Shown here: positions 1,803 to 24,082 of the stretch, one piece after another
Layout: each line of letters opens with the position of its first letter
Position numbering within the stretch: the stretch's first letter is position 1
IMG/VR virus record: IMGVR_UViG_3300027899_000061
Location: 1 to 26,335 of that record
DNA from: a virus
Lineage: Duplodnaviria > Caudoviricetes
Reading direction: 5' to 3' (one strand)
Length of the DNA: 26,335 bases
The notes under the pieces: model-generated
Databases searched by the model: none
What the model saw: only the letters and a program-made list of their open reading frames with translations
Told to the model about the DNA's origin: nothing
Position numbers and translations under genes: made by a program

Positions 1803-2624
1803 TCATTTACTCTCCTTGGTCATATCATCCTGTTGGGGATCGTATGTGCCAATGTTGCCTGTTGCACTTTTGATTTGAGTTTGATAGAAGGGTCTGTAGG
1901 TAATGTGAGTGGGTCCACCATCATTGCCCATTTCTAAATCATCCGGATCGCCACCATATAATTTACCACCAACATCAAAGGCATCGTAGTGAAAAATACC
2001 ATCATAACCAAATGATTCCAACGCTGCTACAAATTCTGAACTGTCACCTATTGTAAACGTATCTATAGTACAATCCTCTAGTATATTTACAATACTACTG
2101 TCATCATCTCCTGCAAGTTCAGATATTTTTTCTGCTACTTCCACAAAGTCTTTCATTCGATAGAGACCATCACTTGCATCGATTTTATACCGTGCACCAG
2201 TGTTGTAAATTATGGTATCTAATTCTTGTAGAATTTCAATTATAGTACCAATATCGTATTTGGGGAATTTGCGAAATATTTCGTCTAGCGTAGCGTTTTC
2301 TCCTAGATCGCGTATGTCAAATGGTGTCTTTATAGCAAGATATACTGGGTGAACATTACTGCCAGCACCATACTCATGGGTAGCTAACTGTCTTGCGTAT
2401 ACACTGGCAACATGTGGATCAGCCGCAAAACTTGATGTTGCTCTCCCCCGTCTTAGACCAAAGCCAGTTGATTTAGGAACTCGTCTGGTACCACGAAACA
2501 CCATCAGTGGACTACCGCTTGAGTCAACAACCTTACTGCCACGAAACCATGCTAAGAATGCTGGATTATACTGTCGCTGTGCCGCTTCCACAATGTTGAT
2601 AAGTTTGCGTATATCGTTGGACAT
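1803..2624 (-). CDS. ADP-ribosyltransferase-fold protein resembling ART-PolyVal (273 aa from MSNDIRK)
   Basis: motifs FxAWFxGSKVVDxxGxPLxVxxGT, VxPVYLxIKxP, GYDGI and QIKSATGNxGTYDP, recognised from memory of the family; start chosen at M21 of the ORF-track protein. Confidence 0.7.
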   Translation of the reverse strand: MSNDIRKLINIVEAAQRQYNPAFLAWFRGSKVVDSSGSPLMVFRGTRRVPKSTGFGLRRGRATSSFAADPHVASVYARQLATHEYGAGSNVHPVYLAIKTPFDIRDLGENATLDEIFRKFPKYDIGTIIEILQELDTIIYNTGARYKIDASDGLYRMKDFVEVAEKISELAGDDDSSIVNILEDCTIDTFTIGDSSEFVAALESFGYDGIFHYDAFDVGGKLYGGDPDDLEMGNDGGPTHITYRPFYQTQIKSATGNIGTYDPQQDDMTKESK

Positions 2625-2628
2625 ACGG

Positions 2629-2636
2629 TATTTATG
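2629..2636 (-). promoter_or_regulatory. putative T4-like late promoter (CATAAATA)
   Basis: 1 mismatch to TATAAATA, 4 nt upstream of the ATG at 2624, no SD. Confidence 0.45.
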
Positions 2637-2719
2637 TTCAACTGGCAACGTATGCCTCAGCTGTTGGGGATGTTGGAAAAACACGCCAGCTGTGCCGCAA
2701 TAAGATCCGTTGGCTCTTG

Positions 2720-2773
2720 TTATTGAGCATATTCAGCAGATTTTTTGTAAAGTTCTTGAATTCGTTCGTTCAT
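2720..2773 (-). pseudogene. truncated MNER-family gene (MNERIQELYKKSAEYAQ*)
   Basis: intact N-terminal box with ATGA overlap, TAA after 17 codons, no central or C-terminal box downstream. Confidence 0.7.
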
Positions 2774-3006
2774 AGTCTACGCCAAATGTGTGTACAATCT
2801 GGACACTGCCATTGTTGCGTCCTATCTGTTTCCATATCGTAAATGCCAATCTGTCGGCCCCACTGCCCCCGCTCTCGTGTGGCACCATACATTGCCGCAA
2901 TACGATCAGCTTCAGCTTCACTGCCAGAATCTTTGTAAAAGTGTTCCCAAATGCTGCCACCATCAAGATCGGCATTGCAGTTAGGGCAATATCCATTTTC
3001 GTTCAT
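2770..3006 (-). CDS. zinc-ribbon-like protein, 78 aa
   Basis: CPNC...CPDC; starts ATGAACGAA at a junction box. Confidence 0.8.
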   Translation of the reverse strand: MNENGYCPNCNADLDGGSIWEHFYKDSGSEAEADRIAAMYGATRERGQWGRQIGIYDMETDRTQQWQCPDCTHIWRRL

Positions 3007-3194
3007 TCTTCAACTCCGATTTTATCTGAGGGAATCTGGTTATAGGGCATATTGTGTTTGCGGCTTTCTTCTATGATATGAGCCAAGTCATCTTCAAATT
3101 TTGTATATCCAGGATTAGATCGTAGTCGTTGCCAGAATGGACTATTAGTGTCATCACTGAACACTTCCTTGATACTGGTTTTATATGCCTTCAT
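3003..3194 (-). CDS. hypothetical protein ending in the GVEE junction box, 63 aa
   Basis: ATGA overlaps at both ends. Confidence 0.8.
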   Translation of the reverse strand: MKAYKTSIKEVFSDDTNSPFWQRLRSNPGYTKFEDDLAHIIEESRKHNMPYNQIPSDKIGVEE

Positions 3195-3472
3195 TTTTCA
3201 ACTCCGAAATGATCTAAAACTGTTTGCCCACAATCATTGATAACTGCTTCTTCAATCTGACTGCGATAATCTTTATAATAACACGGAACACTCAGCACTA
3301 CATTACTACACTTCTTGATAATCAACTCAGCGAACTTTTCTGGATCAAAGTTTTTGTAGACATTGATTTCTTGAAATGTATGAGTTCCATTTCCGTCAAT
3401 ATTTGTTGGTTTAGAGTCCAGTCTATATAACATACCAGCCTGTGTCATAAGTTCTTTAATTCGTTCGTTCAT
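3191..3472 (-). CDS. MNER-FAELI-HFGVE family paralog, 93 aa
   Basis: all three conserved boxes. Confidence 0.9.
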   Translation of the reverse strand: MNERIKELMTQAGMLYRLDSKPTNIDGNGTHTFQEINVYKNFDPEKFAELIIKKCSNVVLSVPCYYKDYRSQIEEAVINDCGQTVLDHFGVEK

Positions 3473-3636
3473 TCTTTAACTCCAGTCTGATTATTCAGCA
3501 CCCAAGTCAGTCTGTCAATAACGTCCTTCAAATCATCTTTGACAATAACTGCACCAACTTTAAGACGGCGTGCATAACTCATATCTGCTACACGTATTGC
3601 CCAATCCATGTATAATTGTGTAAATCTATCTTTCAT
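3469..3636 (-). CDS. 55-aa chimera: dCMP deaminase-like N-terminus fused to a GVKE junction tail
   Basis: manual translation MKDRFTQLYMDWAIRVADMSYARRLKVGAVIVKDDLKDVIDRLTWVLNNQTGVKE; lacks GYNG, HAE and PCxxC. Confidence 0.7.
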   Translation of the reverse strand: MKDRFTQLYMDWAIRVADMSYARRLKVGAVIVKDDLKDVIDRLTWVLNNQTGVKE

Positions 3637-3799
3637 TTTTTAGTTCTAGCAACATTTTTTTAAAATCTGCCATATATGCTAATTGGATATTATGTAGATA
3701 CATGTATAGCTTGGTATCGTTACTCCACTCTTCTATCGCATAGACTAATGCAGAATCAACATGCGGCTCTAATTTTAGTACGTATTCTTCTAATGTCAT
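3626..3799 (-). CDS. hypothetical protein, 57 aa (MTLEEYVLKL...LKNER)
   Basis: manual translation; ATGA overlap at junction box; fills the gap. Confidence 0.7.
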   Translation of the reverse strand: MTLEEYVLKLEPHVDSALVYAIEEWSNDTKLYMYLHNIQLAYMADFKKMLLELKNER

Positions 3800-4071
3800 T
3801 CTTTAACTCCAAAATGGTGATCAATCAATGCTCTCACATACCATGTACTCAGCCCAATATGTCCCCAGCCTGGTCCACGCTCGTGGGGAACATAAACCTT
3901 GTCGCACTTATCATGTTCAGCCTCTGCTAGAAGTTTTTTAAGTTCTTCAATGCCAAATCCCTTAAAGAAATTAAAAGATGATTGAGTTGAAAAATAATGG
4001 TATTCATGTTTAAAGTCAGTGGTTGGATAGCCCTTATCGTAGGGAATTTTTATGCCGTCAAATGCGCCCAT
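3796..4071 (-). CDS. hypothetical protein with HFGVKE tail, 91 aa
   Basis: unrelated body, C-terminal box present. Confidence 0.85.
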   Translation of the reverse strand: MGAFDGIKIPYDKGYPTTDFKHEYHYFSTQSSFNFFKGFGIEELKKLLAEAEHDKCDKVYVPHERGPGWGHIGLSTWYVRALIDHHFGVKE

Positions 4072-4277
4072 TATTCTTCAACTCCGAAATGTGTAAACAA
4101 TAATTCACAGTGGTGTGTTGCTCCATTATCTTCGTACATAACACTGACACATTCTTTGACAATCAACTCGGCGAACTTTTCGTATAGTTTGCTCTCAAAA
4201 TTCTTATACTCCATAATCATAAGGAGTTGCGTTTCTTCCACAGCCTGTTCAGCAAGTTTTCGAATTCGGTCGTTCAT
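4071..4277 (-). CDS. MNER-FAELI-HFGVE family paralog, 68 aa
   Basis: all three boxes. Confidence 0.9.
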   Translation of the reverse strand: MNDRIRKLAEQAVEETQLLMIMEYKNFESKLYEKFAELIVKECVSVMYEDNGATHHCELLFTHFGVEE

Positions 4278-4489
4278 TCTTCAACTCCGAAATGTTGTTT
4301 AACCACGCTACTAAAAGTTGACTCAAGTTCATAATTACGCAAAGTTACTTGAATACATTCTCTGACAATCAACTCGGCGAACTTTTCGATGGCTTCGTCG
4401 CCCACAAGAGCATGCCCCATATAGTCATCATAGATACCAGTATAATGTGGGTCAGCCTGTTCAGCAAGTTCTTTAATTCGTTCGTTCAT
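4274..4489 (-). CDS. MNER-FAELI-HFGVE family paralog, 71 aa
   Basis: all three boxes. Confidence 0.9.
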   Translation of the reverse strand: MNERIKELAEQADPHYTGIYDDYMGHALVGDEAIEKFAELIVRECIQVTLRNYELESTFSSVVKQHFGVEE

Positions 4490-4779
4490 TCTTCAACTCC
4501 GAAAAAATGTTCTCTAATCGCTACGTAACTATCAACACCACACTGAACATAACCATCCCAATGTGTGTCCTTCATCATTTCTTTATCTTCTAACACAGGC
4601 TTATACTGTTCTTCAACCTGACGCATACATTCTTTCACAATCAACTCGGCGAACTTTTCATTATAATCTTCAGCAAACACCTCGTGATAATCTTCCCAAT
4701 TTGGGTAACCTGCTTCTAGCCATTGTTGATTAGCGTATGCTTCAGCTTGACTGACGAGCTGTTTAATTCGTTCGTTCAT
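4486..4779 (-). CDS. MNER-FAELI-HFGVE family paralog, 97 aa
   Basis: all three boxes; start reset to MNER. Confidence 0.9.
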   Translation of the reverse strand: MNERIKQLVSQAEAYANQQWLEAGYPNWEDYHEVFAEDYNEKFAELIVKECMRQVEEQYKPVLEDKEMMKDTHWDGYVQCGVDSYVAIREHFFGVEE

Positions 4780-5107
4780 TAAATGCCTTTCTACAATCAA
4801 TCAATAAGTCTCGCACTTTTTGGTGCTCCATGAGTTCAGGATTAAACAAGCCACCTACTGACAAGTATTCCGTAATTCTATCTACAAGTTGTTTGGTTGG
4901 ATTCATTCTTGTCCTGATAGTGTCGGCAAGGTCTGCTGGATGCGTTGATTTGTCAGCCTCTGCACATATCTTTGCACATGCCTCGTTTTCTGCTGTTGCT
5001 ACAAGGTTGGCAAAACCCTCTAGACTACGCCAGTCATACTTATCCCAAGTGCCGTTCCAATCAAGGTCAACTGCTTTTGCCATGCGTACAATATCATTTT
5101 TGGTCAT
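4763..5107 (-). CDS. hypothetical two-part protein, 114 aa; N-terminal half resembles the array family architecture
   Basis: DIVRMAKA...EGFANLV...EACAKIC; ATGA overlap. Confidence 0.8.
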   Translation of the reverse strand: MTKNDIVRMAKAVDLDWNGTWDKYDWRSLEGFANLVATAENEACAKICAEADKSTHPADLADTIRTRMNPTKQLVDRITEYLSVGGLFNPELMEHQKVRDLLIDCRKAFNERTN

Positions 5108-5301
5108 CGCAACTCCGGTTCTTTTTCATAGCATGGTTTACACACTGCATCTGATCGTGGTCCCATACAGTGATAGATAACACCAGCACAATACTTACAC
5201 AAGATAAATGCGTGAGTCACTATACTGCCTTTTGCCGGCGCATACATGTGATAGTAACCTTCTTCACGCTCTGTGTAGCCAATGTGTTCACGTTCGTTCA
5301 T
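5104..5301 (-). CDS. small Cys-rich (zinc finger-like) protein with MNER start, 65 aa
   Basis: CKYC, HC, CKPC. Confidence 0.8.
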   Translation of the reverse strand: MNEREHIGYTEREEGYYHMYAPAKGSIVTHAFILCKYCAGVIYHCMGPRSDAVCKPCYEKEPELR

Positions 5302-5729
5302 TCGTTAAACTCCTTAAGTTCAAACACATAATGACCACCACGACGAGAGCTTACCCAATTCAGATGCCACATCATATCACACTTTTGCATTGAACTGATA
5401 ATGCTTTCATTGCCACTCCATCCAGCAGTTGAAATATCATACTGATAGACTTTCTCATCTTTGCGATACTCATGATCAGCCTCACCTTCCCCCCAGCCCC
5501 ATGATGGCATGTACCAAATGCTTTTGATAAAGTCGAACCAACCTTTGGCATCGCTCCAGTGCCAGGTTTCAACAATATCAAGTGCAGCATCAGTGGGATA
5601 CCCGTCCTCATCTATTAGGTCTTGCTCCATTAGTTTAGCAATGAGTGCCTTACTGTCTGCAATATCCTGCAACATCTTGGTATGAATTTCTTTAATATAC
5701 GCTTCGTGTTCTTCCTTAGTTCTTTTCAC
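5298..5729 (-). CDS. hypothetical phage protein, 143 aa (DEDGYPT...STAGWSGNE...RGGHY)
   Basis: GTG start overlapping the upstream TGA, with GGAG SD. Confidence 0.8.
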   Translation of the reverse strand: MKRTKEEHEAYIKEIHTKMLQDIADSKALIAKLMEQDLIDEDGYPTDAALDIVETWHWSDAKGWFDFIKSIWYMPSWGWGEGEADHEYRKDEKVYQYDISTAGWSGNESIISSMQKCDMMWHLNWVSSRRGGHYVFELKEFNE

Positions 5730-5914
5730 TGTGTCACTCCAAAGTGTTTCTTTGCTGCATTCCACCCATACTGAAATGCTTCCCATTCTAGTTCATCATA
5801 GCCACATGCACCCGATAGCGAAATATTGCGACCATCTGAGGTATCTTTGAGATATAGATCAAACATATCTGACTGTTCTTGGGTGTCCCAATCTTCTTTC
5901 ATTCGTTCGTTCAT
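5726..5914 (-). CDS. hypothetical protein with MNER start and HFGV tail but unrelated core, 62 aa
   Basis: start reset to M34 of the ORF-track protein. Confidence 0.8.
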   Translation of the reverse strand: MNERMKEDWDTQEQSDMFDLYLKDTSDGRNISLSGACGYDELEWEAFQYGWNAAKKHFGVTQ

Positions 5915-5915
5915 G

Positions 5916-6155
5916 TTATTTCCAGAATTTGTACCAAGGCTTCCTAATAGATACAGGTTTTCCCTCAAAGTAGAGTGCATCAGGACCACATTTTTCTTCA
6001 CGCATGCCGGCATACTGCAAGGGTTTACTCCGTGTCACGTGTGCAAATTTAGCATTAATGGAGCCATCAATTACAGAATACCCATTTTGGGGTGCATGGC
6101 ACCAATCTGCCCTGTACCCCTTCGAAAAATACTTACAGTCTTTACATAATTTCAT
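5916..6155 (-). CDS. small Cys-rich protein, 79 aa
   Basis: CKDC..C..C; C-terminal KPWYKFWK. Confidence 0.8.
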   Translation of the reverse strand: MKLCKDCKYFSKGYRADWCHAPQNGYSVIDGSINAKFAHVTRSKPLQYAGMREEKCGPDALYFEGKPVSIRKPWYKFWK

Positions 6156-6469
6156 TCTTTAGCTCCAAACTTTTCTTGCAGCCGTTTGAACTCAGCAGCA
6201 TCACGCTGTTCTTCAAACTTTGCGTAGTTTTCTTCACGAGCAATGCGCCGTGCCAGTTCTTCGTCAGTTTCTGGTTCATCTTTGCAAACATACAAAGTCT
6301 CTCGATCAGAGTCACTATACGGTTCACACTTGCCCATGATCTGTGCGTCATTGCCATACTTCTCGATCAGCATCTTGACTTTGTTCAATACATCTTCTAG
6401 CGTATTCCATTCAAAATGAATCGAAGTCTTTTCTTTAGAGACCATCTTGCGTTCGTAATTTACTTTCAT
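6152..6469 (-). CDS. hypothetical protein ending FGAKE, 105 aa
   Basis: degenerate junction box GGAGCTAAAGAATGA. Confidence 0.85.
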   Translation of the reverse strand: MKVNYERKMVSKEKTSIHFEWNTLEDVLNKVKMLIEKYGNDAQIMGKCEPYSDSDRETLYVCKDEPETDEELARRIAREENYAKFEEQRDAAEFKRLQEKFGAKE

Positions 6470-6631
6470 TTATTCCACATCCATTTCTTGGTAATTGCGA
6501 TACTCAGATTCGGTATCTTCAAATTCTTCTTTCCAAATCAATGCTTTGACTTCATTATCAAACACTTTCATCGCCGACTTGAATTCGTCACAATAGTTGA
6601 AATAGCACTGATATCCGATCCAGACTTTCAT
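6470..6631 (-). CDS. hypothetical protein, 53 aa (MKVWIGYQCY...EMDVE)
   Basis: manual translation; fills the gap exactly. Confidence 0.75.
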   Translation of the reverse strand: MKVWIGYQCYFNYCDEFKSAMKVFDNEVKALIWKEEFEDTESEYRNYQEMDVE

Positions 6632-6882
6632 TCTTCAACTCCGAAATGTGCTTTAACTCTAGTCATAGCAGCAATTTTAGCAGTTTTATATGCCCCAGAT
6701 GCAGAACAGTCTGTGTCAGGAATAGCCTCAGCAATTTGAGCAGTACATTCCCGAACAATCAACTCGGCAAACCTTTCTGCACTAAAGCACATTGTCTCAT
6801 AAGGCATGTTGTTAGATGGATCAATTGTGGTATCTGGCACATGAGCCTGTTTATAAAGTTCCAACATTCGTTCGTTCATCAC
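6628..6882 (-). CDS. MNER-FAELI-HFGVE family paralog, 84 aa
   Basis: all three boxes. Confidence 0.9.
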   Translation of the reverse strand: MMNERMLELYKQAHVPDTTIDPSNNMPYETMCFSAERFAELIVRECTAQIAEAIPDTDCSASGAYKTAKIAAMTRVKAHFGVEE

Positions 6883-7022
6883 ATGCTCTCCAATGCCTTC
6901 TTTAGTTCAATGAGTTCTTTAGCCAGTTTGTCATAGTCGCTCTTCCGAACAAACTTAATATACTTTGCAGTTCCTACACTGGTCATAGCAGGGACCCAAA
7001 ATGCCCAAGTTTTTGGTTTCAT
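6879..7022 (-). CDS. hypothetical protein, 47 aa (MKPKTWAFW...)
   Basis: ATGA overlaps at both ends. Confidence 0.75.
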   Translation of the reverse strand: MKPKTWAFWVPAMTSVGTAKYIKFVRKSDYDKLAKELIELKKALESM

Positions 7023-7327
7023 TCCGCAACTCCGAAATGTTCTTTGATCTGATTTGCCGCCCAACGAACACCTTTGTCCCATTCGTCATTGCTACCATTA
7101 TCGGCACACTGGTCAATACATTCCTGAACAATCAACTCGGCGAACTTTTGATCTAAGAGTTTTCTATATTCTTCTATGTCAATACCATTATCAATGCTAT
7201 CAACATAGTCTGCGGCTTGTTGTTTAAGTTCTTTAATTCGTTCGTTCATTTTAAGCTCCCAAGAAATGGGAATCACGCAACCTTGGTATTGAACAGTTTG
7301 CGAAATTCCGTCTATATTGTGTATCAT
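7019..7327 (-). CDS. MNER-FAELI-HFGVE family paralog with 26-aa leader
   Basis: all three boxes; alternative start MNER at 7249. Confidence 0.9.
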   Translation of the reverse strand: MIHNIDGISQTVQYQGCVIPISWELKMNERIKELKQQAADYVDSIDNGIDIEEYRKLLDQKFAELIVQECIDQCADNGSNDEWDKGVRWAANQIKEHFGVAE

Positions 7328-7341
7328 TCTTCAACTCCGAA
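7245..7341. repeat. 97-bp exact direct repeat (copy 2 at 10209-10305)
   Basis: base-by-base identity, offset 2964. Confidence 0.95.
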
Positions 7342-7536
7342 CCGTTCTAGTATATGCATATCAATAGCATAGGTTGGCATCATTTTTATTTCACAATATT
7401 CTTCGTGTTCAACAGCAATTTTAGCACACTCCCGAATAATCAACTCGGCAAATTTTTCCATAACTAAATCAGTCCCGTATGCTAGTCTGTCTGGATATCC
7501 AGCCTGACGACCAAGTTCTTTAATTCGTTCGTTCAT
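7324..7536 (-). CDS. MNER-FAELI-HFGVE family paralog, 70 aa
   Basis: all three boxes. Confidence 0.9.
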   Translation of the reverse strand: MNERIKELGRQAGYPDRLAYGTDLVMEKFAELIIRECAKIAVEHEEYCEIKMMPTYAIDMHILERFGVEE

Positions 7537-7775
7537 TATTCGTCTTCCAACAGATTTAATTTTTCTGCCATTTCAACGCACATACGTCTAATTCCCAACA
7601 CTCGGTCACGGTGACTTAGAATTTCTTCCGTCTCGTTCAGAATGTCTTCGGCAATACGCCAAGCACCCTGTGTAAAATCAATCTCGCCACGACCAGCCTT
7701 GACCCCAATACAAACCGCCTGAGCCAGTAAGTCTTTTAACGAAATCTTGCCGTCAATCATACGATCTTCAATCAT
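7536..7775 (-). CDS. hypothetical protein, 79 aa
   Basis: coupled to neighbours by ATGA/TAATG overlaps. Confidence 0.8.
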   Translation of the reverse strand: MIEDRMIDGKISLKDLLAQAVCIGVKAGRGEIDFTQGAWRIAEDILNETEEILSHRDRVLGIRRMCVEMAEKLNLLEDE

Positions 7776-7975
7776 TCTTCAACTCCATATTCTGCTTTCA
7801 AATCATCCATAGCTTTACGCATACGTTCTTTCACTGGAAGATATTGCACAGGATGAATAGGAATATAGGACCACCCCATACCACCCCATATTTTACTACC
7901 TTCTAGCAATTTGTCAATGTCAGCAAGTAGTTGGAATCTAGGATCAGCCCAGAGTTTCTTAACATGTTCGTTCAT
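7772..7975 (-). CDS. hypothetical protein with MNEH start and YGVEE tail, unrelated core, 67 aa
   Basis: terminal boxes only. Confidence 0.8.
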   Translation of the reverse strand: MNEHVKKLWADPRFQLLADIDKLLEGSKIWGGMGWSYIPIHPVQYLPVKERMRKAMDDLKAEYGVEE

Positions 7976-7986
7976 TATTGATATCC

Positions 7987-8169
7987 TTAAAATACAGAAA
8001 CTGGTGGGATCTTTGAGCTACCACAGCCACAGTTTCTCTTGAGAATATGTTGATACTTTTCTGGGTTATCTTTCATATCCTGAAGACGCTGATAGAATCG
8101 TTCTTCAATCTCTTGATCGATGCAAGAAGTATTGAAGAAGTTGCGAATCTTTTCTAATAGTGTTTTCAT
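7987..8169 (-). CDS. hypothetical protein, 60 aa
   Basis: starts at junction box. Confidence 0.75.
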   Translation of the reverse strand: MKTLLEKIRNFFNTSCIDQEIEERFYQRLQDMKDNPEKYQHILKRNCGCGSSKIPPVSVF

Positions 8170-8357
8170 TCTTCAACTCCGAAATGTTCTAAAATTCCAC
8201 CAGGTCCATCATATGCCAAAGAGGCACACTCTCTGACAATCAACTCGGCGAACTTTTCCAAGGTATCTGTGGACATATGAGATACCGTAAGTTTGAATAA
8301 GTCTGGGGATCGCATACCCGCCTGTTTGGCAAGTTTAAGAATTTGTTTGTTCATCAT
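8166..8357 (-). CDS. MNER-FAELI-HFGVE family paralog, 63 aa
   Basis: central and C-terminal boxes intact, N box diverged; first gene after promoter. Confidence 0.9.
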   Translation of the reverse strand: MMNKQILKLAKQAGMRSPDLFKLTVSHMSTDTLEKFAELIVRECASLAYDGPGGILEHFGVEE

Positions 8358-8385
8358 CTACTCCAGTTTTGTTGCGAATGTAAAT

Positions 8386-8414
8386 ATTATAGCATCCACT
8401 GGATTATCAGTCAA
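8386..8414 (-). promoter_or_regulatory. sigma70-type early promoter heading the 2720-8357 sub-array
   Basis: TTGACT-17nt-TATAAT, then GCAACAA...GGAG. Confidence 0.85.
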
Positions 8415-8462
8415 CCGAAAAATTATGAACTAGTACGCGGATTATTCTGCTGAATTGAATAC

Positions 8463-8615
8463 TCAGCCACTGTTATTATCATCAATTGATGTTTGGTCTG
8501 GCAGATTTTCTTCAACAATTACACCGCCCAAACAAGACTGATAGCATTCAGCAACTGCTCTGACGTAAAATTTTATCATAGCACCATTGGTAGTGGTAAG
8601 TTTATAGACGGTCAT
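8463..8615 (-). CDS. hypothetical protein, 50 aa (MTVYKLTTTNG...)
   Basis: manual translation; ATGA overlap. Confidence 0.65.
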   Translation of the reverse strand: MTVYKLTTTNGAMIKFYVRAVAECYQSCLGGVIVEENLPDQTSIDDNNSG

Positions 8616-8800
8616 GCCGCAAATACCTGATATTCTTCATAGGTAAGGAACAGATCAGTCTGGGGATTTATATATTCACCTTGGCTGGGAGAGTAATATA
8701 AGACCCGATTGCCATCATAAAAAAACGGACCTTCTAGACCTTCACGTGCCTCATAACAAGCACGAAATTCCTGAGATACGTTGATAATTTTGTAACCCAT
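8612..8800 (-). CDS. hypothetical phage protein, 62 aa (GLEGPF...VLYY.P..GEY)
   Basis: downstream of promoter 8839-8867. Confidence 0.8.
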   Translation of the reverse strand: MGYKIINVSQEFRACYEAREGLEGPFFYDGNRVLYYSPSQGEYINPQTDLFLTYEEYQVFAA

Positions 8801-8838
8801 TTTCTGTCCACCTACGAAGATATTTATTGTGAATTTAG

Positions 8839-8867
8839 ATTATACGATTCATCTGAATGAACGTCAA
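8839..8867 (-). promoter_or_regulatory. sigma70-type early promoter
   Basis: TTGACG-17nt-TATAAT. Confidence 0.8.
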
Positions 8868-8873
8868 GCATGT

Positions 8874-9134
8874 TTAGCATGCATTCACATGATCATTGAT
8901 CACACCTTCTTGTGAGATAGACCTAATACGAACTCGCGCGTTAACTGCATGTTCAGCTTCTTCAAAAGTTTCAAAATCTTTGGTTACAGAAAACTGTCCG
9001 TCACATACGTACCGACTAATATACTCCCAGGTGTGACCATACCATCGCTTTACCCGAAAACGAACCTGATACATGACCTTGTTGTTACCGTCCACTTCTT
9101 TGATAATCTGATATCGCATGTTAATATTCCTCAA
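8874..9134 (-). CDS. hypothetical protein, up to 86 aa
   Basis: ORF track; start could be 9119. Confidence 0.75.
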   Translation of the reverse strand: MRNINMRYQIIKEVDGNNKVMYQVRFRVKRWYGHTWEYISRYVCDGQFSVTKDFETFEEAEHAVNARVRIRSISQEGVINDHVNAC

Positions 9135-9495
9135 ACATCTTCTTTTCTAGTTCATGCAACTTGACTCGTGCAGCTTCAATGTTCCTATCGTACAAGTCAC
9201 GCTCGATCATCCGAAAGTCTTGCCTGAATTCACCGAAGATTGCTTCGATCACTTGTCGCTTTGTGCGCTCGATTGCATGCGACAGTGCATTGTCTGACTT
9301 CATCTTGTCTAATTCAGAAACAAAACATTCAGAGCCTATGGTAACTCCAATTCTGTATTGTGTCTCTAGTTGAGCGGGATCAGTTCGGATATCCTCACGG
9401 ACACTGAACACATCTTGCAGTAGTGGACTCAATACGTTAATCATACGTACTCTGTCCATCTTTGTTGCTGTGATTGCTTTTACTACTTGACTCAT
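9121..9495 (-). CDS. hypothetical protein, 124 aa
   Basis: ATGA overlap. Confidence 0.85.
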   Translation of the reverse strand: MSQVVKAITATKMDRVRMINVLSPLLQDVFSVREDIRTDPAQLETQYRIGVTIGSECFVSELDKMKSDNALSHAIERTKRQVIEAIFGEFRQDFRMIERDLYDRNIEAARVKLHELEKKMFEEY

Positions 9496-9674
9496 TTTGA
9501 TGCGTAATCCATTAGATAATTGTAAACTTTTTCTGGCTCTGTCTTCCAGACTTCTTCAGGCGTCTGCATGTCAAACGCTTTGTTTTGACCTGACCACCAT
9601 CGCGGGGCTGCATCTTTACCAATCATCGCAATTAGTAGAGCATGACATCTTCCGAGCATAAGTTGCTCATTCAT
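9492..9674 (-). CDS. 60-aa protein resembling the Xre/MbcA/ParS antitoxin C-terminal domain
   Basis: AxxWWxxxNxAFxxxTPxE pattern; recognition only. Confidence 0.5.
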   Translation of the reverse strand: MNEQLMLGRCHALLIAMIGKDAAPRWWSGQNKAFDMQTPEEVWKTEPEKVYNYLMDYASK

Positions 9675-9828
9675 TAGATTTCTCCATCAAAGTTTGCAGT
9701 GCTTTTGCTGCTTCTTCTAGCAAGTCTGCGATTCGATCTGGCTTGCCTTCCTGTACACTCTTGCGGCTTTGAATCTGTCTGCGAATCTCAGCCCGCTTGA
9801 GGAGTCGATAGATTAGATCCTCTCCCAT
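9667..9828 (-). CDS. hypothetical phage protein, 53 aa (MGEDLIYRLLKRAEIRRQI...DRIADLLEEAA)
   Basis: manual translation; fills the gap. Confidence 0.75.
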   Translation of the reverse strand: MGEDLIYRLLKRAEIRRQIQSRKSVQEGKPDRIADLLEEAAKALQTLMEKSNE

Positions 9829-10028
9829 CACCATTCTTTAGTTCCTCGAACAGGAATTCTAACTATAGCGTCACGCCCATTCATTTCACTCTCGAACTGA
9901 ATGTCGATAGTATACCCAATGCCACTTGAATTATCCTTAATCAAATCAAATGCAGATATTTTATTTTCAAGAACAATCTCTCGAATGGCTGCCAAGTCCA
10001 ATGTGCTTAGTCGCATAATAGTATTCAT
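9828..10028 (-). CDS. hypothetical protein, 66 aa
   Basis: starts at junction box. Confidence 0.8.
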   Translation of the reverse strand: MNTIMRLSTLDLAAIREIVLENKISAFDLIKDNSSGIGYTIDIQFESEMNGRDAIVRIPVRGTKEW

Positions 10029-10144
10029 TCTTTTACTCCAAAATGTTGTTCAATCTGATAAGCAATGTGATTACCTTCATCTGAATCACCGTACTCGTCT
10101 ACAATAGCAATACATTGCTGAACAATCAACTGGGCGAACTTTTC
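10025..10144. repeat. ~120-bp imperfect direct repeat (copy 2 at 10795-10914)
   Basis: ungapped match, offset 770, about 11 mismatches by eye. Confidence 0.9.
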
Positions 10145-10291
10145 CAAGTCAATATTGTATTCTGAATAACGATGGTAGCATTGTTCAGCAAGTTGTTTAA
10201 TTCGTTCATTCATTTTAAGCTCCCAAGAAATGGGAATCACGCAACCTTGGTATTGAACAGTTTGCGAAATTCCGTCTATATTGTGTATCAT
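10025..10291 (-). CDS. mosaic MNER-FAELI-HFGVE paralog with 26-aa leader
   Basis: leader identical to 7019..7327; C-terminal half nearly identical to 10795..10989. Confidence 0.9.
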   Translation of the reverse strand: MIHNIDGISQTVQYQGCVIPISWELKMNERIKQLAEQCYHRYSEYNIDLEKFAQLIVQQCIAIVDEYGDSDEGNHIAYQIEQHFGVKE

Positions 10292-10473
10292 TCTTCAACT
10301 CCGAAATGTTTCTTCAACACATCACCGATAATGTCAACACCATAATCATCTACGTGTACGTCTATACACTCCCGAACAATCAACTCGGCGAACCGTTCTA
10401 GATATTTGTTATGGGCAGCAACATACTGTGTTATCTCAGACTGTTCTGCAAGTTCTTTAAGTCGTTCGTTCAT
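10288..10473 (-). CDS. MNER-FAELI-HFGVE family paralog, 61 aa
   Basis: all three boxes. Confidence 0.9.
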   Translation of the reverse strand: MNERLKELAEQSEITQYVAAHNKYLERFAELIVRECIDVHVDDYGVDIIGDVLKKHFGVEE

Positions 10474-10706
10474 TCTTTAACTCCGAAATATGTTTTAACT
10501 TTTTCACATAATCTCTGGACACGTTCTGCTGCTTGTTTGTCTTTGTTACCAACACAATCTAAATATTCTAGTATCAAAATGTCATCAAATTTCTTAACAA
10601 GCAACTCGGCGAAATCTAGATAATTGTCAGGAAATTTATAACCTCTACCCATGTCTTCGGCTAGTCCAGACTTGACAGCAAGGTCATTGATAATTCGTTC
10701 GTTCAT
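10470..10706 (-). CDS. MNER-FAELI-HFGVE family paralog (diverged), 78 aa
   Basis: MNERI / DFAELLV / YFGVKE. Confidence 0.85.
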   Translation of the reverse strand: MNERIINDLAVKSGLAEDMGRGYKFPDNYLDFAELLVKKFDDILILEYLDCVGNKDKQAAERVQRLCEKVKTYFGVKE

Positions 10707-10798
10707 AGTCCTTGTGCCTTTCTGTTAGGACATGCTTCGCATGGTTGATATAACTGTGTCATTGCACATTCAGCACAACTCATCCAAAAAGTTCTCAT
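10703..10798 (-). CDS. 31-aa CxxC...CxxC microprotein
   Basis: MRTFWMSCAECAMTQLYQPCEACPNRKAQGL; ATGA overlaps at both ends. Confidence 0.7.
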   Translation of the reverse strand: MRTFWMSCAECAMTQLYQPCEACPNRKAQGL

Positions 10799-10989
10799 TC
10801 TTCAACTCCGAAGTGTTGTTCAATTTGATAAGCAATGTGATTACCTTCATCTGAATCACCATACTTGTCTACAATAGCAATGCATTGCTGAACAATCAAC
10901 TCGGAAAACTTTTCAATCCTAGTATCAAATTTTGAGTGATGACTGTCCCAGCCAGCCTGTTCAGCAAGTAGTTTAATTCGTTCGTTCAT
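10795..10989 (-). CDS. MNER-FAELI-HFGVE family paralog, 64 aa
   Basis: all three boxes. Confidence 0.9.
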   Translation of the reverse strand: MNERIKLLAEQAGWDSHHSKFDTRIEKFSELIVQQCIAIVDKYGDSDEGNHIAYQIEQHFGVEE

Positions 10990-10992
10990 TCT

Positions 10993-11148
10993 TCAACTCC
11001 AAGCCAATCTAAACTTACCAAAAATAATTTCATAAATTTTCATACCATCAATTGTAGTAGTGCCAAGCCTGAATAAATGATTTACTTGCTCACCTTTGTG
11101 ACTTTTAGTAAACCACAATCCACTTTTTGAATATTCAAATTTTGTCAT
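10993..11148 (-). CDS. hypothetical protein, 51 aa, ending in the junction box read in a shifted frame
   Basis: MTKFEYSK...RLAWS*; TGG AGT TGA AGA ATG. Confidence 0.75.
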   Translation of the reverse strand: MTKFEYSKSGLWFTKSHKGEQVNHLFRLGTTTIDGMKIYEIIFGKFRLAWS

Positions 11149-11393
11149 TATTCAACTCCGAAATGTTCTTTGATCGCTAAAGCAATATTAGTACCGAATA
11201 GACAGTTTCCTGGTTTATTCATACGACCAGCATGGGCACTTTCATCAAACGCAATGCGTACACATTCTTTAACAATCAACTCGGCGAACTTTTCTTGGAA
11301 GTCGCTAGGTACATGAGTACTAATCCGCCATCCGCCATTTTCAGATGAGAATATCATAGCCTGTTTAGCAAGTTCTAGAATTCGTTCGTTCAT
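11148..11393 (-). CDS. MNER-FAELI-HFGVE family paralog, 81 aa
   Basis: all three boxes. Confidence 0.9.
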   Translation of the reverse strand: MNERILELAKQAMIFSSENGGWRISTHVPSDFQEKFAELIVKECVRIAFDESAHAGRMNKPGNCLFGTNIALAIKEHFGVE

Positions 11394-11869
11394 TCTTCAC
11401 CCACCTGTTCTTCGTAAACTTGAGTTGGAGCGTAGGGAAACGTCACGGGAACTCGAGAACCACGACTAGTGAAGTATGTTTTGTAAGGTTTACCGTCATC
11501 GATATCGGGCGAAGAATACCACTCCCAAAAGATTTTGCCTTCACTATCATATGCACCGGCATCATCTTTGAATACACGACCCAATCGTTTGTTTTGATAG
11601 AGTGTGCCGTTGTTACTGCCGGACACCTCTTTTGCAATCTCCATCCACTCAGAGTCTTCGCCAGTCAGAAAAGTCAGTGGTTCATACTTCAACAACTTTG
11701 ACAGCAAGTTGACAGCATAGTTTGCACTGAATCCACTATGTCCTTCTTTAGAGAATTCATGGATCATATGCAAAATGTGTTTACGCATTGCACCATTCAT
11801 CTCATCACCGTCGTCAACTAGACCTATGATGTCTAATTCAGACTCTGCGAATTTCATCATATTACTCAT
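11390..11869 (-). CDS. hypothetical phage protein, 159 aa (GHSGFSA...PLT.LTGED.EW...YQNKR)
   Basis: AAGGA SD before MSNMM; ends VGEE/ATGA. Confidence 0.85.
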   Translation of the reverse strand: MSNMMKFAESELDIIGLVDDGDEMNGAMRKHILHMIHEFSKEGHSGFSANYAVNLLSKLLKYEPLTFLTGEDSEWMEIAKEVSGSNNGTLYQNKRLGRVFKDDAGAYDSEGKIFWEWYSSPDIDDGKPYKTYFTSRGSRVPVTFPYAPTQVYEEQVGEE

Positions 11870-12104
11870 TGTATTTTCCTTTTTCAATTTCATCAGATGT
11901 ACTTTCAGTTGCCCAGTGTACTACAACCCAATCATCAATGCAATCTTTTTCCGACCAAGTCTTATCATATTCTTCTTGACCGTATTTCTCAATCATCTTT
12001 CCGCGCCAATGTGGGTAATACTGTTTGATAATGTCGTTGTCCGAAAGTGTTTCGTACACGACTTCTCCTTTGTCGCCGGGATAACAAATAGTCCAATACT
12101 GCAT
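11862..12104 (-). CDS. hypothetical protein, 80 aa
   Basis: GAGGA SD; overlaps the next gene. Confidence 0.8.
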   Translation of the reverse strand: MQYWTICYPGDKGEVVYETLSDNDIIKQYYPHWRGKMIEKYGQEEYDKTWSEKDCIDDWVVVHWATESTSDEIEKGKYNE

Positions 12105-12107
12105 GAA

Positions 12108-12265
12108 TTATTCCTCGGTCCAGGGATTTGCCTGATTAGGATTATGAACTTCAGTATTATTGTTGATAGCATCTGAATCACTTTGATCAATGACATAAGA
12201 CAGCAACATGGCCAGAATGATAATCATCAAAAAAATCCAACAGCAAGTGCAACTAGAATTAGCAT
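12108..12265 (-). pseudogene. small membrane protein gene apparently frameshifted in a T7 run
   Basis: MLILVALAVGFF* continues as LMIIILAMLLSYV...PWTEE* if one T is added at 12229-12235. Confidence 0.5.
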
Positions 12266-12299
12266 AAAATGCCCCGTGTTAATTATAAACTATCAATTT

Positions 12300-12503
12300 T
12301 CATCGTGTGATCCCAAAATGTTCAACAACCACATCGTACATACAACGGAATTCGCTGTCATTATTTTCAGCTTGATTAGCCACTCTGGCACATTCTTTGA
12401 TCAGATACTCAGAATATATTTTGATAAAAAGATCCTGATCGTAGTTTCCTAGGTCAGGGTGTGCTACTGCCTGCTGAGCCAGCATTTTAATTACGTTATT
12501 CAT
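12300..12503 (-). CDS. degenerate MNER-family paralog, 67 aa
   Basis: MNNVIKMLAQQA / YSEYLIKEC / EHFGI; DNA boxes eroded. Confidence 0.8.
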   Translation of the reverse strand: MNNVIKMLAQQAVAHPDLGNYDQDLFIKIYSEYLIKECARVANQAENNDSEFRCMYDVVVEHFGITR

Positions 12504-12829: not shown

Positions 12830-13393
12830 TTAACTGCCGTTATCCTGCTCTCTACGTTTGCGTCGTGCTTCTGCAAGAATGAATACTTTTTCGTTGTCAT
12901 TGACCCAGTCATCTGGAATAGGCACACCATTGATTGCATGATTTTCTTCACTGTCGTAGGCCCAACCAAGGCCGCGCAGCATCTTGTGTTTGACCAGCAG
13001 ATTGGGTACACGGAAATCTTCCAAATCCTGGAATCCTATCATGACCCCAATCTCACACACTGCACCACTGCGACAGACGCCAGCATGGCAGTGTACTATC
13101 ACATTCATGTCCTGGGCCAGTGCATGTTGCAACAGCTTGACTAATTTAGTAGCCTGATCCTGCGTGATGGCAACTTCACTGACGTCAACGAACTCCCCAC
13201 TGCCAAAGTTGGTTATACCATCTTCTTCAATATCAAGAAAATCAAACTGATGTATTTCCTTGAAATGGGCATATTGTGGGGTTGGGTGGTCTCCGGGCGG
13301 ATCGGAAATCTGAATTAGCATGGAGTTTGCCCCGGGGTCTCGATGCGAGCCACGAGAGACTTCACTCCGTGATAAATTTTGAATCCAGGGCAT
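12830..13393 (-). CDS. protein tyrosine/dual-specificity phosphatase-like protein
   Basis: CX5R loop VHCHAGVCRSG; upstream FxDI acid loop. Confidence 0.85.
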   Translation of the reverse strand: MPWIQNLSRSEVSRGSHRDPGANSMLIQISDPPGDHPTPQYAHFKEIHQFDFLDIEEDGITNFGSGEFVDVSEVAITQDQATKLVKLLQHALAQDMNVIVHCHAGVCRSGAVCEIGVMIGFQDLEDFRVPNLLVKHKMLRGLGWAYDSEENHAINGVPIPDDWVNDNEKVFILAEARRKRREQDNGS

Positions 13394-13767: not shown

Positions 13768-13795
13768 ATTATAACGGTGAAAGATATTTTGTCAA
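13768..13795 (-). promoter_or_regulatory. sigma70-type early promoter
   Basis: TTGACA-16nt-TATAAT. Confidence 0.8.
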
Positions 13796-22763: not shown

Positions 22764-23053
22764 TTTTTAAAATATTTATTTATTAGTTTAATCCCAAGAT
22801 ACGTACCCAACACTGTGGTCATTACTTTGACCACGGTGATCCATGTATCGCTATTTTCTATAGCAGCGCTTATGCCAAATGCAGTCACGCTCATGCTTAC
22901 CATTGGTTGTCCATTAATAGTCAAACTAGGCCCAGCATCTACATCTGACATGGTGTATAGCATAGTATATAGGTCGTACAGATTAATTGCAACTATATAA
23001 GCCACTATACCCAACAATAAGCATATTACTATTTTTTTATAAGGCGTCTTCAT
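22760..23053 (-). CDS. hypothetical membrane protein, 97 aa
   Basis: hydrophobic helices; ATGA overlaps at both ends. Confidence 0.7.
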
Positions 23054-23370
23054 ACTCTGAAACTTTCCCCGCATCCGCAGCGATCTCGCTCATTGGGGTT
23101 ATTAAATTTAAACCCCACATTTAATCCGCTTCGTACATAATCAACAATCATACCAGTCAAATATACTTGACTTTTTGGATCAATGAAGATTTTACATTGG
23201 TTGGTTTCAAAACATTGATCATCGGTGCTTACTTGGTCTACGTACTCAAGTACATAGGCTAATCCGCTGCACCCAGTGGTTTTAACTCCAATTTTAAGAC
23301 CAACTCCTTTGCCCCTACGTTCTAACTGTCGCAGTACTTTCGCGGCTGCTTGATCAGTTAACGTGATCAT
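23050..23370 (-). CDS. iscA: A-type Fe-S carrier IscA
   Basis: [18 protein letters not shown]...RCGCGESF. Confidence 0.93.
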
Positions 23371-23743
23371 GATGTTTGGACTTATAGTCTGCCACTGCGG
23401 CTTTTATTGCATCCTCGGCAAGGATTGAGCAATGTATTTTGACAGGTGGAAGAGCTAACTCTTCGGCGATATCACTGTTTTTAAGAACTGACGCCTGGTC
23501 AATGTGCATACCTTTGACCCACTCTGTGACAAGACTTGAGCTTGCAATGGCCGAACCACATCCATATGTTTTAAATCTTGCATCTGTGATAATACCATTT
23601 TCATCTACCTTTATTTGTAATTTCATTACGTCACCGCAGGCTGGGGCTCCTACCATGCCTGTACCCACAGTATCATCAATGTCAAATTTTCCTACATTGC
23701 GCGGATTTTCGCAATGATCAATAACTTTTTCTGAATAGGCCAT
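23354..23743 (-). CDS. iscU: Fe-S scaffold IscU
   Basis: [28 protein letters not shown]. Confidence 0.96.
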
Positions 23744-23752
23744 GATATTCCT

Positions 23753-24082
23753 CTATGTGGAAAAACTGCTGCCACATCCACAAGTGGATTGTGCATTGGG
23801 ATTTTGTATACTAAACTGGCTGCCTTCCAGACTTTCTTTATAGTCAATCACTGCTCCCTCGAGATATTGCATGCTCATTGCATCAATCAGAATTTTAATT
23901 CCCTGCTTTTCTAAAACAAAATCATCCTCGTTTACCTGTTCATCAAAGGTGAACCCATATTGGAATCCAGAACATCCGCCACCCTGCACAAATGTTCTCA
24001 ATTTATAATTTGGATTGTTCTCCTCCACCAACAGTTCGGATATCTTGTTAGCAGCATTTTCAGTTATAGTTACTTGATCCAT
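23753..24082 (-). CDS. erpA: A-type Fe-S carrier ErpA
   Basis: [28 protein letters not shown]. Confidence 0.93.

Follow-up and report, generated by a model that had tools for sequence, protein, structure and literature searches.

Integrons shuffle the order of gene cassettes, and diversity-generating retroelements (DGRs) combine a constant scaffold with a variable display. Elsewhere exchange is tied to short conserved sequences: as far as the extracts of the published accounts go, the conserved motifs in the specificity domain of the T-even adhesin gp38 form its structural core, and recombination in or near these motifs gives chimeric proteins (PMC3157838). The PeSL cassettes of RB49 and phi1 are repeats in plastic early regions of T4-type phages that provide homology for the insertion, deletion and replacement of small genes, according to a Botstein-type linker logic and with no dedicated recombinase identified in that account (PMC2839356); in segmental gene conversion (Neisseria pilE/pilS, Borrelia vlsE, Anaplasma msp2), mosaics form at short conserved stretches on either side of variable segments, of 1-34 bp for pilE (PMC4534519). 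Here we describe a family of small genes in the viral DNA IMGVR_UViG_3300027899_000061, the whole record of which, 26,335 nucleotides (nt), was analysed (hereafter the window). Each gene consists of three conserved boxes (B1, B2 and B3) separated by two variable segments (V1 and V2). All 13 paralogs listed in a preliminary description of the window, with the boxes MNERIKELAxQA, EKFAELIVxEC and xHFGVEE, were recovered; they lie on the minus strand and encode 61-97 amino acids (aa). The segment-shuffling family is real and well supported: V1 and V2 are almost completely decoupled from each other, and the arrays expand, contract and are scrambled.

For the comparison of segments, near-clonal contigs were collapsed, which left 345 of 414 gene instances, in 122 groups (an enlarged set comprised 437 genes in 197 groups), pairs were formed between different groups, and segments at least 90% alike were counted as the same. 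In the first set, none of the 43 pairs sharing V1 kept V2 and none kept the upstream DNA; of the 22 pairs sharing V2, likewise none kept V1 and none kept the downstream DNA, with one intermediate case. The enlarged set contained few exceptions (V1 to V2, 2/73; V1 to upstream, 3/73; V2 to V1, 1/42; V2 to downstream, 1/42), mostly in short loci possibly derived from one phage. When redundancy was limited to spanning-tree edges, the partner was kept in 2/104 and 2/101 comparisons, and when database proteins were set against locus genes it was kept in 2/107 and 2/40; furthermore, 15 of 16 fully identical V1 segments sit beside another V2. Non-family genes from the same loci, used as controls, kept their other half in 18/24 and 22/27 comparisons, their upstream context in 11/24 and their downstream context in 6/27. 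Control genes thus mostly keep their halves and less often their neighbours, indicating that mosaicism at gene boundaries is general in these regions whereas splitting within genes is specific to the family. The earlier proposal that V1 and V2 reassort with the boxes as exchange points was therefore borne out, neither the V1-V2 pairing nor the gene order being fixed.

The array of the window illustrates these mosaics. Genes are named by their lower coordinate; L numbers denote compared loci, P numbers database proteins and X1-X4 sequencing runs, and likeness is given as a fraction.

11148..11393, minus strand: family gene, 81 aa, with B1 at 11393, B2 at 11294 and B3 at 11165; first of the array, overlapping the stop of a Tad3-like gene
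10993..11148, minus strand: cargo open reading frame (ORF) between B3 and B1, 51 aa, with a B3-like end
10795..10989, minus strand: family gene, 64 aa; V1 like those of L144 and L037 (0.97), whose V2 differ; V2 like that of gene 10025 (0.94)
10470..10706, minus strand: family gene, 78 aa; V1 recurs at the protein level in P0001 beside another V2
10288..10473, minus strand: family gene, 61 aa; V2 identical to that of L079, which has another V1
10214..10287, minus strand: B3-B1 spacer or 26-codon cargo, duplicated at 7250-7323 with different flanks
10025..10213, minus strand: family gene, 62 aa; a mosaic with the upstream spacer of 7019, V1 0.96 alike to L110 and V2 0.94 alike to 10795
8166..8354, minus strand: family gene, 62 aa, which follows the promoter at 8414; V2 found again in P0002 beside another V1
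7324..7536, minus strand: family gene, 70 aa
7250..7323, minus strand: second copy of the B3-B1 spacer
7019..7249, minus strand: family gene, 76 aa; B1-V1-B2 92% alike to L251
6628..6879, minus strand: family gene, 83 aa; run X2 has an identical copy with unchanged pairing
4486..4779, minus strand: family gene, 97 aa; V2 0.80 alike to that of L112, whose V1 differs
4274..4489, minus strand: family gene, 71 aa; the member modelled with AlphaFold
4071..4277, minus strand: family gene, 68 aa; V1 0.91 alike to that of L122, whose V2 differs
3469..3636, minus strand: ORF, likely a captured gene fragment, 55 aa; residues 1-35 match the N-terminus of dCMP deaminase (phrog_174, E 6e-8); B3-like end
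3191..3472, minus strand: family gene, 93 aa
3003..3194, minus strand: cargo ORF, 63 aa, with its start supplied by B3, a B3-like end and a 187-nt tract in common with L110
2720..2773, minus strand: B1-only ORF (truncated member), 17 aa
12300..12503, minus strand: diverged fourteenth member, 67 aa; protein motifs recognisable, DNA boxes at 11.6, -3.7 and 8.4 bits, below the thresholds of the position weight matrices (PWMs)

Most V segments cannot be aligned with one another, as the preliminary description held, although the V2 segments of 10025 and 10795 are 94% alike. In gene 10025, each tract in common with 7019 (the upstream spacer) or with 10795 (V2) ends in a box, and the 76-nt B3-B1 spacer is present twice, ahead of 7019 and of 10025. 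Across loci, 348 of 352 shared BLAST tracts cross no box, and 507 of 704 tract ends fall in boxes, the zones of which make up about 12% of nearby DNA; this share is not independent of the linkage result, because alignments run into similar boxes. The slots are strictly specific, and no V1 was found in a V2 slot. The segments seen so far form 385 V1 and 395 V2 clusters, from which Chao1 estimates about 1,100 and 1,470 types, respectively. Homologous segments of equal length had a dN/dS of 0.13 in both slots (122 and 114 edges of the spanning trees), and 63% of their differences fell at third codon positions. Purifying selection thus maintains the V segments as stable modules, and they are not hypermutated. 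Of the two hypervariable inserts proposed earlier, the two variable slots stand, but what fills them is a large pool of conserved modules rather than sequence made hypervariable by mutation.

Comparison of close phages revealed several individual events. L122 and L111 are 97% alike in both flanks, but from the first B1 to the last B2 one array has been exchanged for another (about 1,200 versus 580 nt); L091 and L014 have five segments in common, in the order 5,3,4,2,1; and one segment is present twice in each of six loci, the window included. In run X2, a 551-nt contig joins 10208 to 11389, B1 to B1 in register and without 1,180 nt, so that gene 10025 of this strain adjoins the Tad3-like gene directly, and in run X4 a 798-nt contig contains cargo 10993 between different flanks (10986-11169, 6 differences). 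Tables of joints at a likeness of 90-93 were dominated by the boxes of other phages and were left unused except for one contig with long pieces on both sides; back-joints in assembled contigs, as would be left by mini-circles, are confounded by other phages' boxes in the same way.

Repeated boxes could also produce mosaics artificially, as chimeras of metagenome assembly. The data are assembled contigs and not raw or long reads, Logan contigs and unitigs do break at boxes, and junctions of about 50 identical bases are common to several phages. Chimeras would nevertheless leave a dominant true pairing, and none was kept in the 43 pairs sharing V1; many separately assembled contigs agree (21-mer containment 0.9-1.0), the X1 unitigs listed bridge 3191, 4071, 6628, 10025, 10288 and 10470 without differences, three pairings are repeated in other studies, and shared segments often differ by 3-9%. 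We regard an origin of the mosaics in assembly as very improbable.

The boxes are conserved at the DNA level. In the window the codon observations of the preliminary description held throughout (the B2 leucine is TTG in 13/13 genes, the codon before it xAG in 13/13, and the B1 arginine CGA in all 12 genes that have it), box PWM scores were 18-59 bits, whereas 20 shuffled versions of the window reached at most 2.0, and every site lay on the same strand. The silent sites were examined in 172 genes from loci chosen by a codon-blind pattern, with the V segments as background. The B2 codons AAG (128/149), GCC (140/168), GAG (136/153) and TTG (150/171) far exceeded their backgrounds of 0.29, 0.22, 0.21 and 0.31, as did CGA (139/152; background 0.24) and CTT (128/161; background 0.14) in B1, so that the predicted synonymous conservation of the boxes above background was amply confirmed. 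B3 consists of a Shine-Dalgarno sequence, a spacer and an overlapping stop and start, and thereby starts the next gene; part of the conservation of B3 and B1 is accordingly translational, leaving B2 as the only clean case, since its mid-gene position means that translation signals cannot explain its silent conservation.

These data bear on whether the family could have arisen by ordinary duplication and divergence, with the boxes conserved through protein constraint and translation signals alone. That the Shine-Dalgarno sequence and the start and stop codons overlap B3 and B1 accounts for some of the silent-site conservation, and the controls, too, are often mosaic at gene boundaries (downstream kept in the 6/27 given above). 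The fixed rare codons of B2 in mid-gene, the identical V segments adjoining unrelated partners and the failure of controls to split internally all contradict such an origin, as the linkage tables had already done, and we consider it barely tenable.

A frame-blind DNA scan of 309 sequences placed B2 in frame with B1 in 508/509 cases and B3 in frame with B2 in 504/517, with stretches free of stops in 508/509 and 510/517, respectively; only 1 of the 309 sequences had boxes on both strands. The start codon of B3 opened 129 of the 137 cargo stretches lying between B3 and B1, and B3-like ends occur in the window on the non-family genes 3003, 3469, 3796, 6152, 7772 and 10993. B3 also supplies the start of core genes, twice of DNA ligase and once each of RNA ligase and RNase H (L034:8218-9552, L156:2934-4217, L121:457-1464 and L027:2605-3492). 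In the two-unit fusions P0001, P0002 and P0015, B3 continues in frame into a second unit; these may be real tandem fusions or assembly errors. P0124 and P0123, and likewise P0125 and P0020, are identical except at B1 codons 6-7 (and in one case the last residue), as box-limited gene conversion would give, in two cases only.

Linkage profiles were computed against lineage-matched backgrounds (12-35 pairs per test). Linkage to V1 falls stepwise across B2 (0.91, 0.68, 0.46, 0.22, 0.36, 0.11, 0.08) whereas that to V2 increases irregularly (0.10, 0.14, 0.23, 0.53, 0.10, 0.54, 0.80), with a similar gradient in B1. Such gradual decay fits distributed, repeated and mismatch-tolerant exchange better than one cut site. 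Five large carrier genomes (292-374 kb, 4 of them at least 90% complete), with 11, 7, 17, 6 and 2 family matches often in several clusters, were searched for recombination genes: a RecA-family gene was present in 5/5, UvsX-like in all 4 checked, and a serine resolvase in 1/5, and none of the five gave a match to the reverse transcriptase (RT) family RVT_1 (PF00078), tyrosine integrase (PF00589), RecT or IS110. Because linkage decays gradually in B1 and B2, and RecA/UvsX occurs in all five genomes and RT and tyrosine recombinase in none, homology-guided exchange is likely. Within the window itself, no recombinase or RT was found among the 56 ORFs scanned against Pfam and PHROGs, in agreement with the preliminary description.

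The explanation that we consider probable is that of a multi-copy mini-gene family in which the boxes are the points where V1, V2 and cargo switch partners, likely through mismatch-tolerant homologous recombination by UvsX-type machinery. The most conserved helices would have become the sole sequence that paralogs still have in common; crossovers and conversion at them would homogenise the boxes further, a feedback by which they would become hot linkers. Since each box pairs with its own kind alone (B1 with B1, B2 with B2), products keep the reading frame and each segment its slot, and since B3 carries the Shine-Dalgarno sequence and the overlapping stop and start, anything that lands behind it is predicted to be translated; foreign genes slot in there as well, and the exchange also carries unrelated cargo. 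The resulting products would be acidic three-helix proteins, as predicted, with two independent modules drawn from pools of about 1,100 V1 and 1,500 V2 types (Chao1).

Several observations weigh against this explanation. The longest exact run between the boxes of random paralogs has a median of 13-15 nt, short for UvsX/RecA (the extract of PMC2839356 cites the homology needed for T4 recombination as under 50 bp), and the UvsX evidence comes from carriers of the family and not from the window's own full genome. Shared tracts are nearly always one segment long, so that simple crossovers would have to recur very often, and the exchange rate looks higher than the rate of point mutation in the segments. 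Crossovers in B3 cluster narrowly, switching within about nine bases (approximately positions 3-11), and B2 positions 23-26 are linked to neither side (6/35 and 4/26 identical; background 0.06), with only 6 conserved bases remaining to V2. The pair counts are not fully independent. Finally, genes 3191, 6628 and 10025 have kept their pairings in the close strains of runs X2 and X3, and exchange therefore does not occur at every gene in each generation.

Short homology, one-segment tracts and the unlinked B2 bases keep alive a dedicated cassette-exchange system, which would move single segments between boxes by a site-specific or microhomology recombinase, small circles, single-strand patches or RT. 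The 4-nt stretch of B2 resembles a coupling sequence, a 7-mer common to B2 and B3 is read in two frames, and the scrambled order in L091 and L014 would fit as well. Such a system is hard to reconcile with the gradual decay of linkage in B1 and B2, with slot specificity that is strict in spite of the common 7-mer, with the lack of a recurrent hairpin and folding scores near zero in 40 sampled genes, or with the enzymes sought in the five large genomes, where, RecA aside, the serine resolvase in one was the only match, although a novel enzyme family would escape that search; we judge it unlikely. Separately, an RNA or single-stranded DNA hairpin at the boxes was tried as a candidate and rejected, the mean minimum free energy z being 0.22, -0.6 and -0.08 (RNA parameters, mononucleotide shuffles, 40 genes) and the commonest box pair occurring in 41/250 folds.

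The AlphaFold model of gene 4274..4489 (pLDDT 78.8, pTM 0.68) has helices at residues 3-12, 31-52 and 57-67, corresponding to B1, to B2 with the start of V2, and to the end of V2 with B3, and V1 is a low-confidence loop; the helical scaffold suggested earlier is thus supported as a prediction, with three helices. Predicted models of other uncharacterised phage proteins match it with TM scores of at most 0.78. Apart from one sub-threshold PH match, the 14 members gave no Pfam or PHROG family. Foldseek found nothing in the PDB at E 0.001, BFVD matches were confined to uncharacterised or unnamed proteins, VIA gave no Z of 5 (best Z 4.6, root-mean-square deviation 5.5, 62 residues), the PDB sequence search returned only a 20-residue stretch on designed helical repeats, and the ESM Atlas gave nothing beyond hypothetical viral clusters and one weak row for a PsiF repeat (TM 0.60). 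These blank searches do not establish a new fold. The members are acidic (median charge -6) and keep an amphipathic pattern at the edges of V2, so that V2 types are likely to be homologs of long standing and not sequences captured at random. Between V1 and V2, length is uncorrelated and charge or hydrophobicity only weakly correlated (rho about -0.1), which suggests independent modules over one composite surface.

The preliminary description had assigned the products an anti-defence or host-takeover role as binders. For this role speak the early promoters and one adjacent Tad3-family gene; the searches of neighbours did not support it, as boxes lay within 4 kb of Tad3 relatives in 0/5 cases and no anti-defence Pfam family occurred among 150 scanned genes behind B3 (of 225 distinct). 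A Pfam match was found in 12 of these 150, to DNA and RNA ligases, RNase H, peptidase M24 and others. The products would likely be early-expressed host-interaction proteins, and the early context together with selection would point to binders. Being under purifying selection, the modules are candidate host-targeting peptides that could be screened slot by slot. Alternatively, the shuffling could be real and the proteins not specific binders, the scaffold forming a self-spreading linker, favoured by recombination, whose modules need only be foldable and harmless, with its value in translational coupling and the movement of cargo. The near-independence of V1 and V2 in length, charge and hydrophobicity, which preserves no composite binding surface, a copy number ranging from 2 to 17, and the core genes headed by B3 (DNA ligase, RNA ligase and RNase H) are in its favour; yet dN/dS of 0.13, with 63% of differences at third positions, the near-absence of frameshifts or stops and the kept amphipathic edges of V2 indicate sustained selection on the protein sequence of each module, and we hold this alternative to be doubtful. 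Comparably doubtful is a more far-reaching picture, that of a community-wide combinatorial library with about a million V1 x V2 products on one helical scaffold, in which dedicated microhomology-driven exchange would move single segments, the modules would act as independent inhibitors or binders of a host target, and B3 would be an integrase-free, self-translating gene-capture site.

The family is large. A peptide pattern matched 636 scanned viral stretches, of which 550 were confirmed, giving an estimate of about 2,700 in the collection; in a profile search 7,981 of 8,000 scored protein clusters matched, with no Pfam domain among the 120 clusters listed. Whole proteins hardly recur: the collection contained 8 of the 10 window members looked up, and their clusters had a size of 1 or 2. 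Cultured phage records gave no family match by tblastn with one member or blastn with three. The 21 loci found in bacterial genomes all lie on contigs of metagenome-assembled genomes from mixed phyla; they are probably misbinned phage DNA, and no host was therefore assigned. No description of the family was found in a literature search of main texts, mostly those available without subscription, and the extract of PMC1524935 deals with ordinary duplications only.

The window reads as a piece of a large, uncultured T4-like phage on the basis of ribonucleotide reductase and Fe-S genes, which were recognised by eye in the translations, and a long run of small minus-strand genes. Its NrdA was verified by comparison and is at most 62% alike to those of cultured phages; three genes at 23050-24082 (minus strand), between nrd genes, we take to be IscA-, IscU- and ErpA-like Fe-S assembly proteins from their translations by eye. 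Metagenome runs containing the window stretch are freshwater, aquatic and marine, with no RNA runs among those listed, and the best-matching run may be its source. The surroundings of the array comprise the following.

13768..13795, minus strand: perfect sigma70 consensus, upstream of the array
12830-13393, minus strand: dual-specificity or tyrosine phosphatase-like protein (PF22785, E 3e-6), upstream of the array
11390..11893, minus strand: gene of the Tad3 family (type I Thoeris inhibitor; PF25185, E 8e-36), directly upstream and overlapping the start of the first array gene
1803-2684, minus strand: ART-PolyVal ADP-ribosyltransferase family protein (PF18760, E 1e-9), directly downstream of the array

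The Tad3-family gene is counted here as a neighbour of the array. Twelve sites, all on the minus strand, match the sigma70 consensus in at least 11 of 12 positions; they confirm the upstream promoters noted earlier and include 13795, 14433 and 15384 upstream as well as 8867 and 8414 within the array. Weak sigma70 sites (59 in total versus a shuffle mean of 42) were near chance and terminator-like sites (10 versus 10.8 expected) at chance level. No relatives of the diverged member 12300..12503 were found for use as a control. Outside the family, gene 5726-5914 and its neighbours (5298-5914, minus strand) have short 90%-alike pieces in common with L119, L128, L144 and L173 in varying combinations, hinting at further intragenic mosaics beyond the three-box genes.

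The family shows with unusual clarity, in nature, modular evolution driven by Botstein-type linkers inside genes: thousands of phage proteins that lack annotation can be reduced to two pools of conserved modules, which are nearly in linkage equilibrium. With it one can test how little homology suffices for exchange to be routine in T4-like jumbo phages, and whether phages maintain a common recombining library of small interaction modules.

In its operation the family resembles two of the described systems. Like gp38, it alternates conserved motifs with variable segments and, as found here, exchanges in the motifs. According to the gp38 extract, however, that adhesin is a tail protein of the virion, present in single copy, with glycine-rich motifs and four hypervariable segments (HVSs) of a restricted palette, sets of which are often associated (PMC3157838), whereas the family has 2-17 copies per genome of predicted helical proteins of 60-100 aa, two slots with hundreds of module types, near-complete decoupling, intragenomic exchange and cargo capture; the Pfam and PHROG searches gave no sequence homology to gp38, and the boxes are predicted helices instead of glycine-rich motifs. 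Like PeSL, the repeats of the family bound insertions, deletions and replacements of small genes (L122/L111, the B1-B1 joint of X2 and cargo 10993). PeSL elements are described as non-coding and intergenic, with a promoter and stem-loop, and mini-circles have been shown for them (extract of PMC2839356); the boxes are coding, without promoter or hairpin, one lying in mid-gene and one forming a ribosome site with an overlapping stop and start. As a separate observation, L103 and L132 carry many copies of other repeats of about 50 nt with a sigma70 promoter consensus, one of which bounds an insertion or replacement between the two strains; these read as PeSL-like elements in a carrier phage. Antigen systems use silent donors, one expression site and unidirectional transfer (extract of PMC4534519), whereas almost all copies of the family are intact ORFs, each with a ribosome site of its own, and different phages have one pool in common. 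In contrast to integrons, the family has no attC-like hairpin, and the five large carrier genomes contain no tyrosine integrase; in contrast to DGRs, there is no RT (PF00078 in 0/5 genomes), conserved modules are swapped without mutagenesis, and V differences are mostly synonymous, unlike the DGR pattern. The family thus works like gp38 shuffling and PeSL exchange, yet it belongs to neither of these, nor to antigen conversion, integrons or DGRs: homology-anchored modular exchange is known, and the form of the family and its unusual scale are new.

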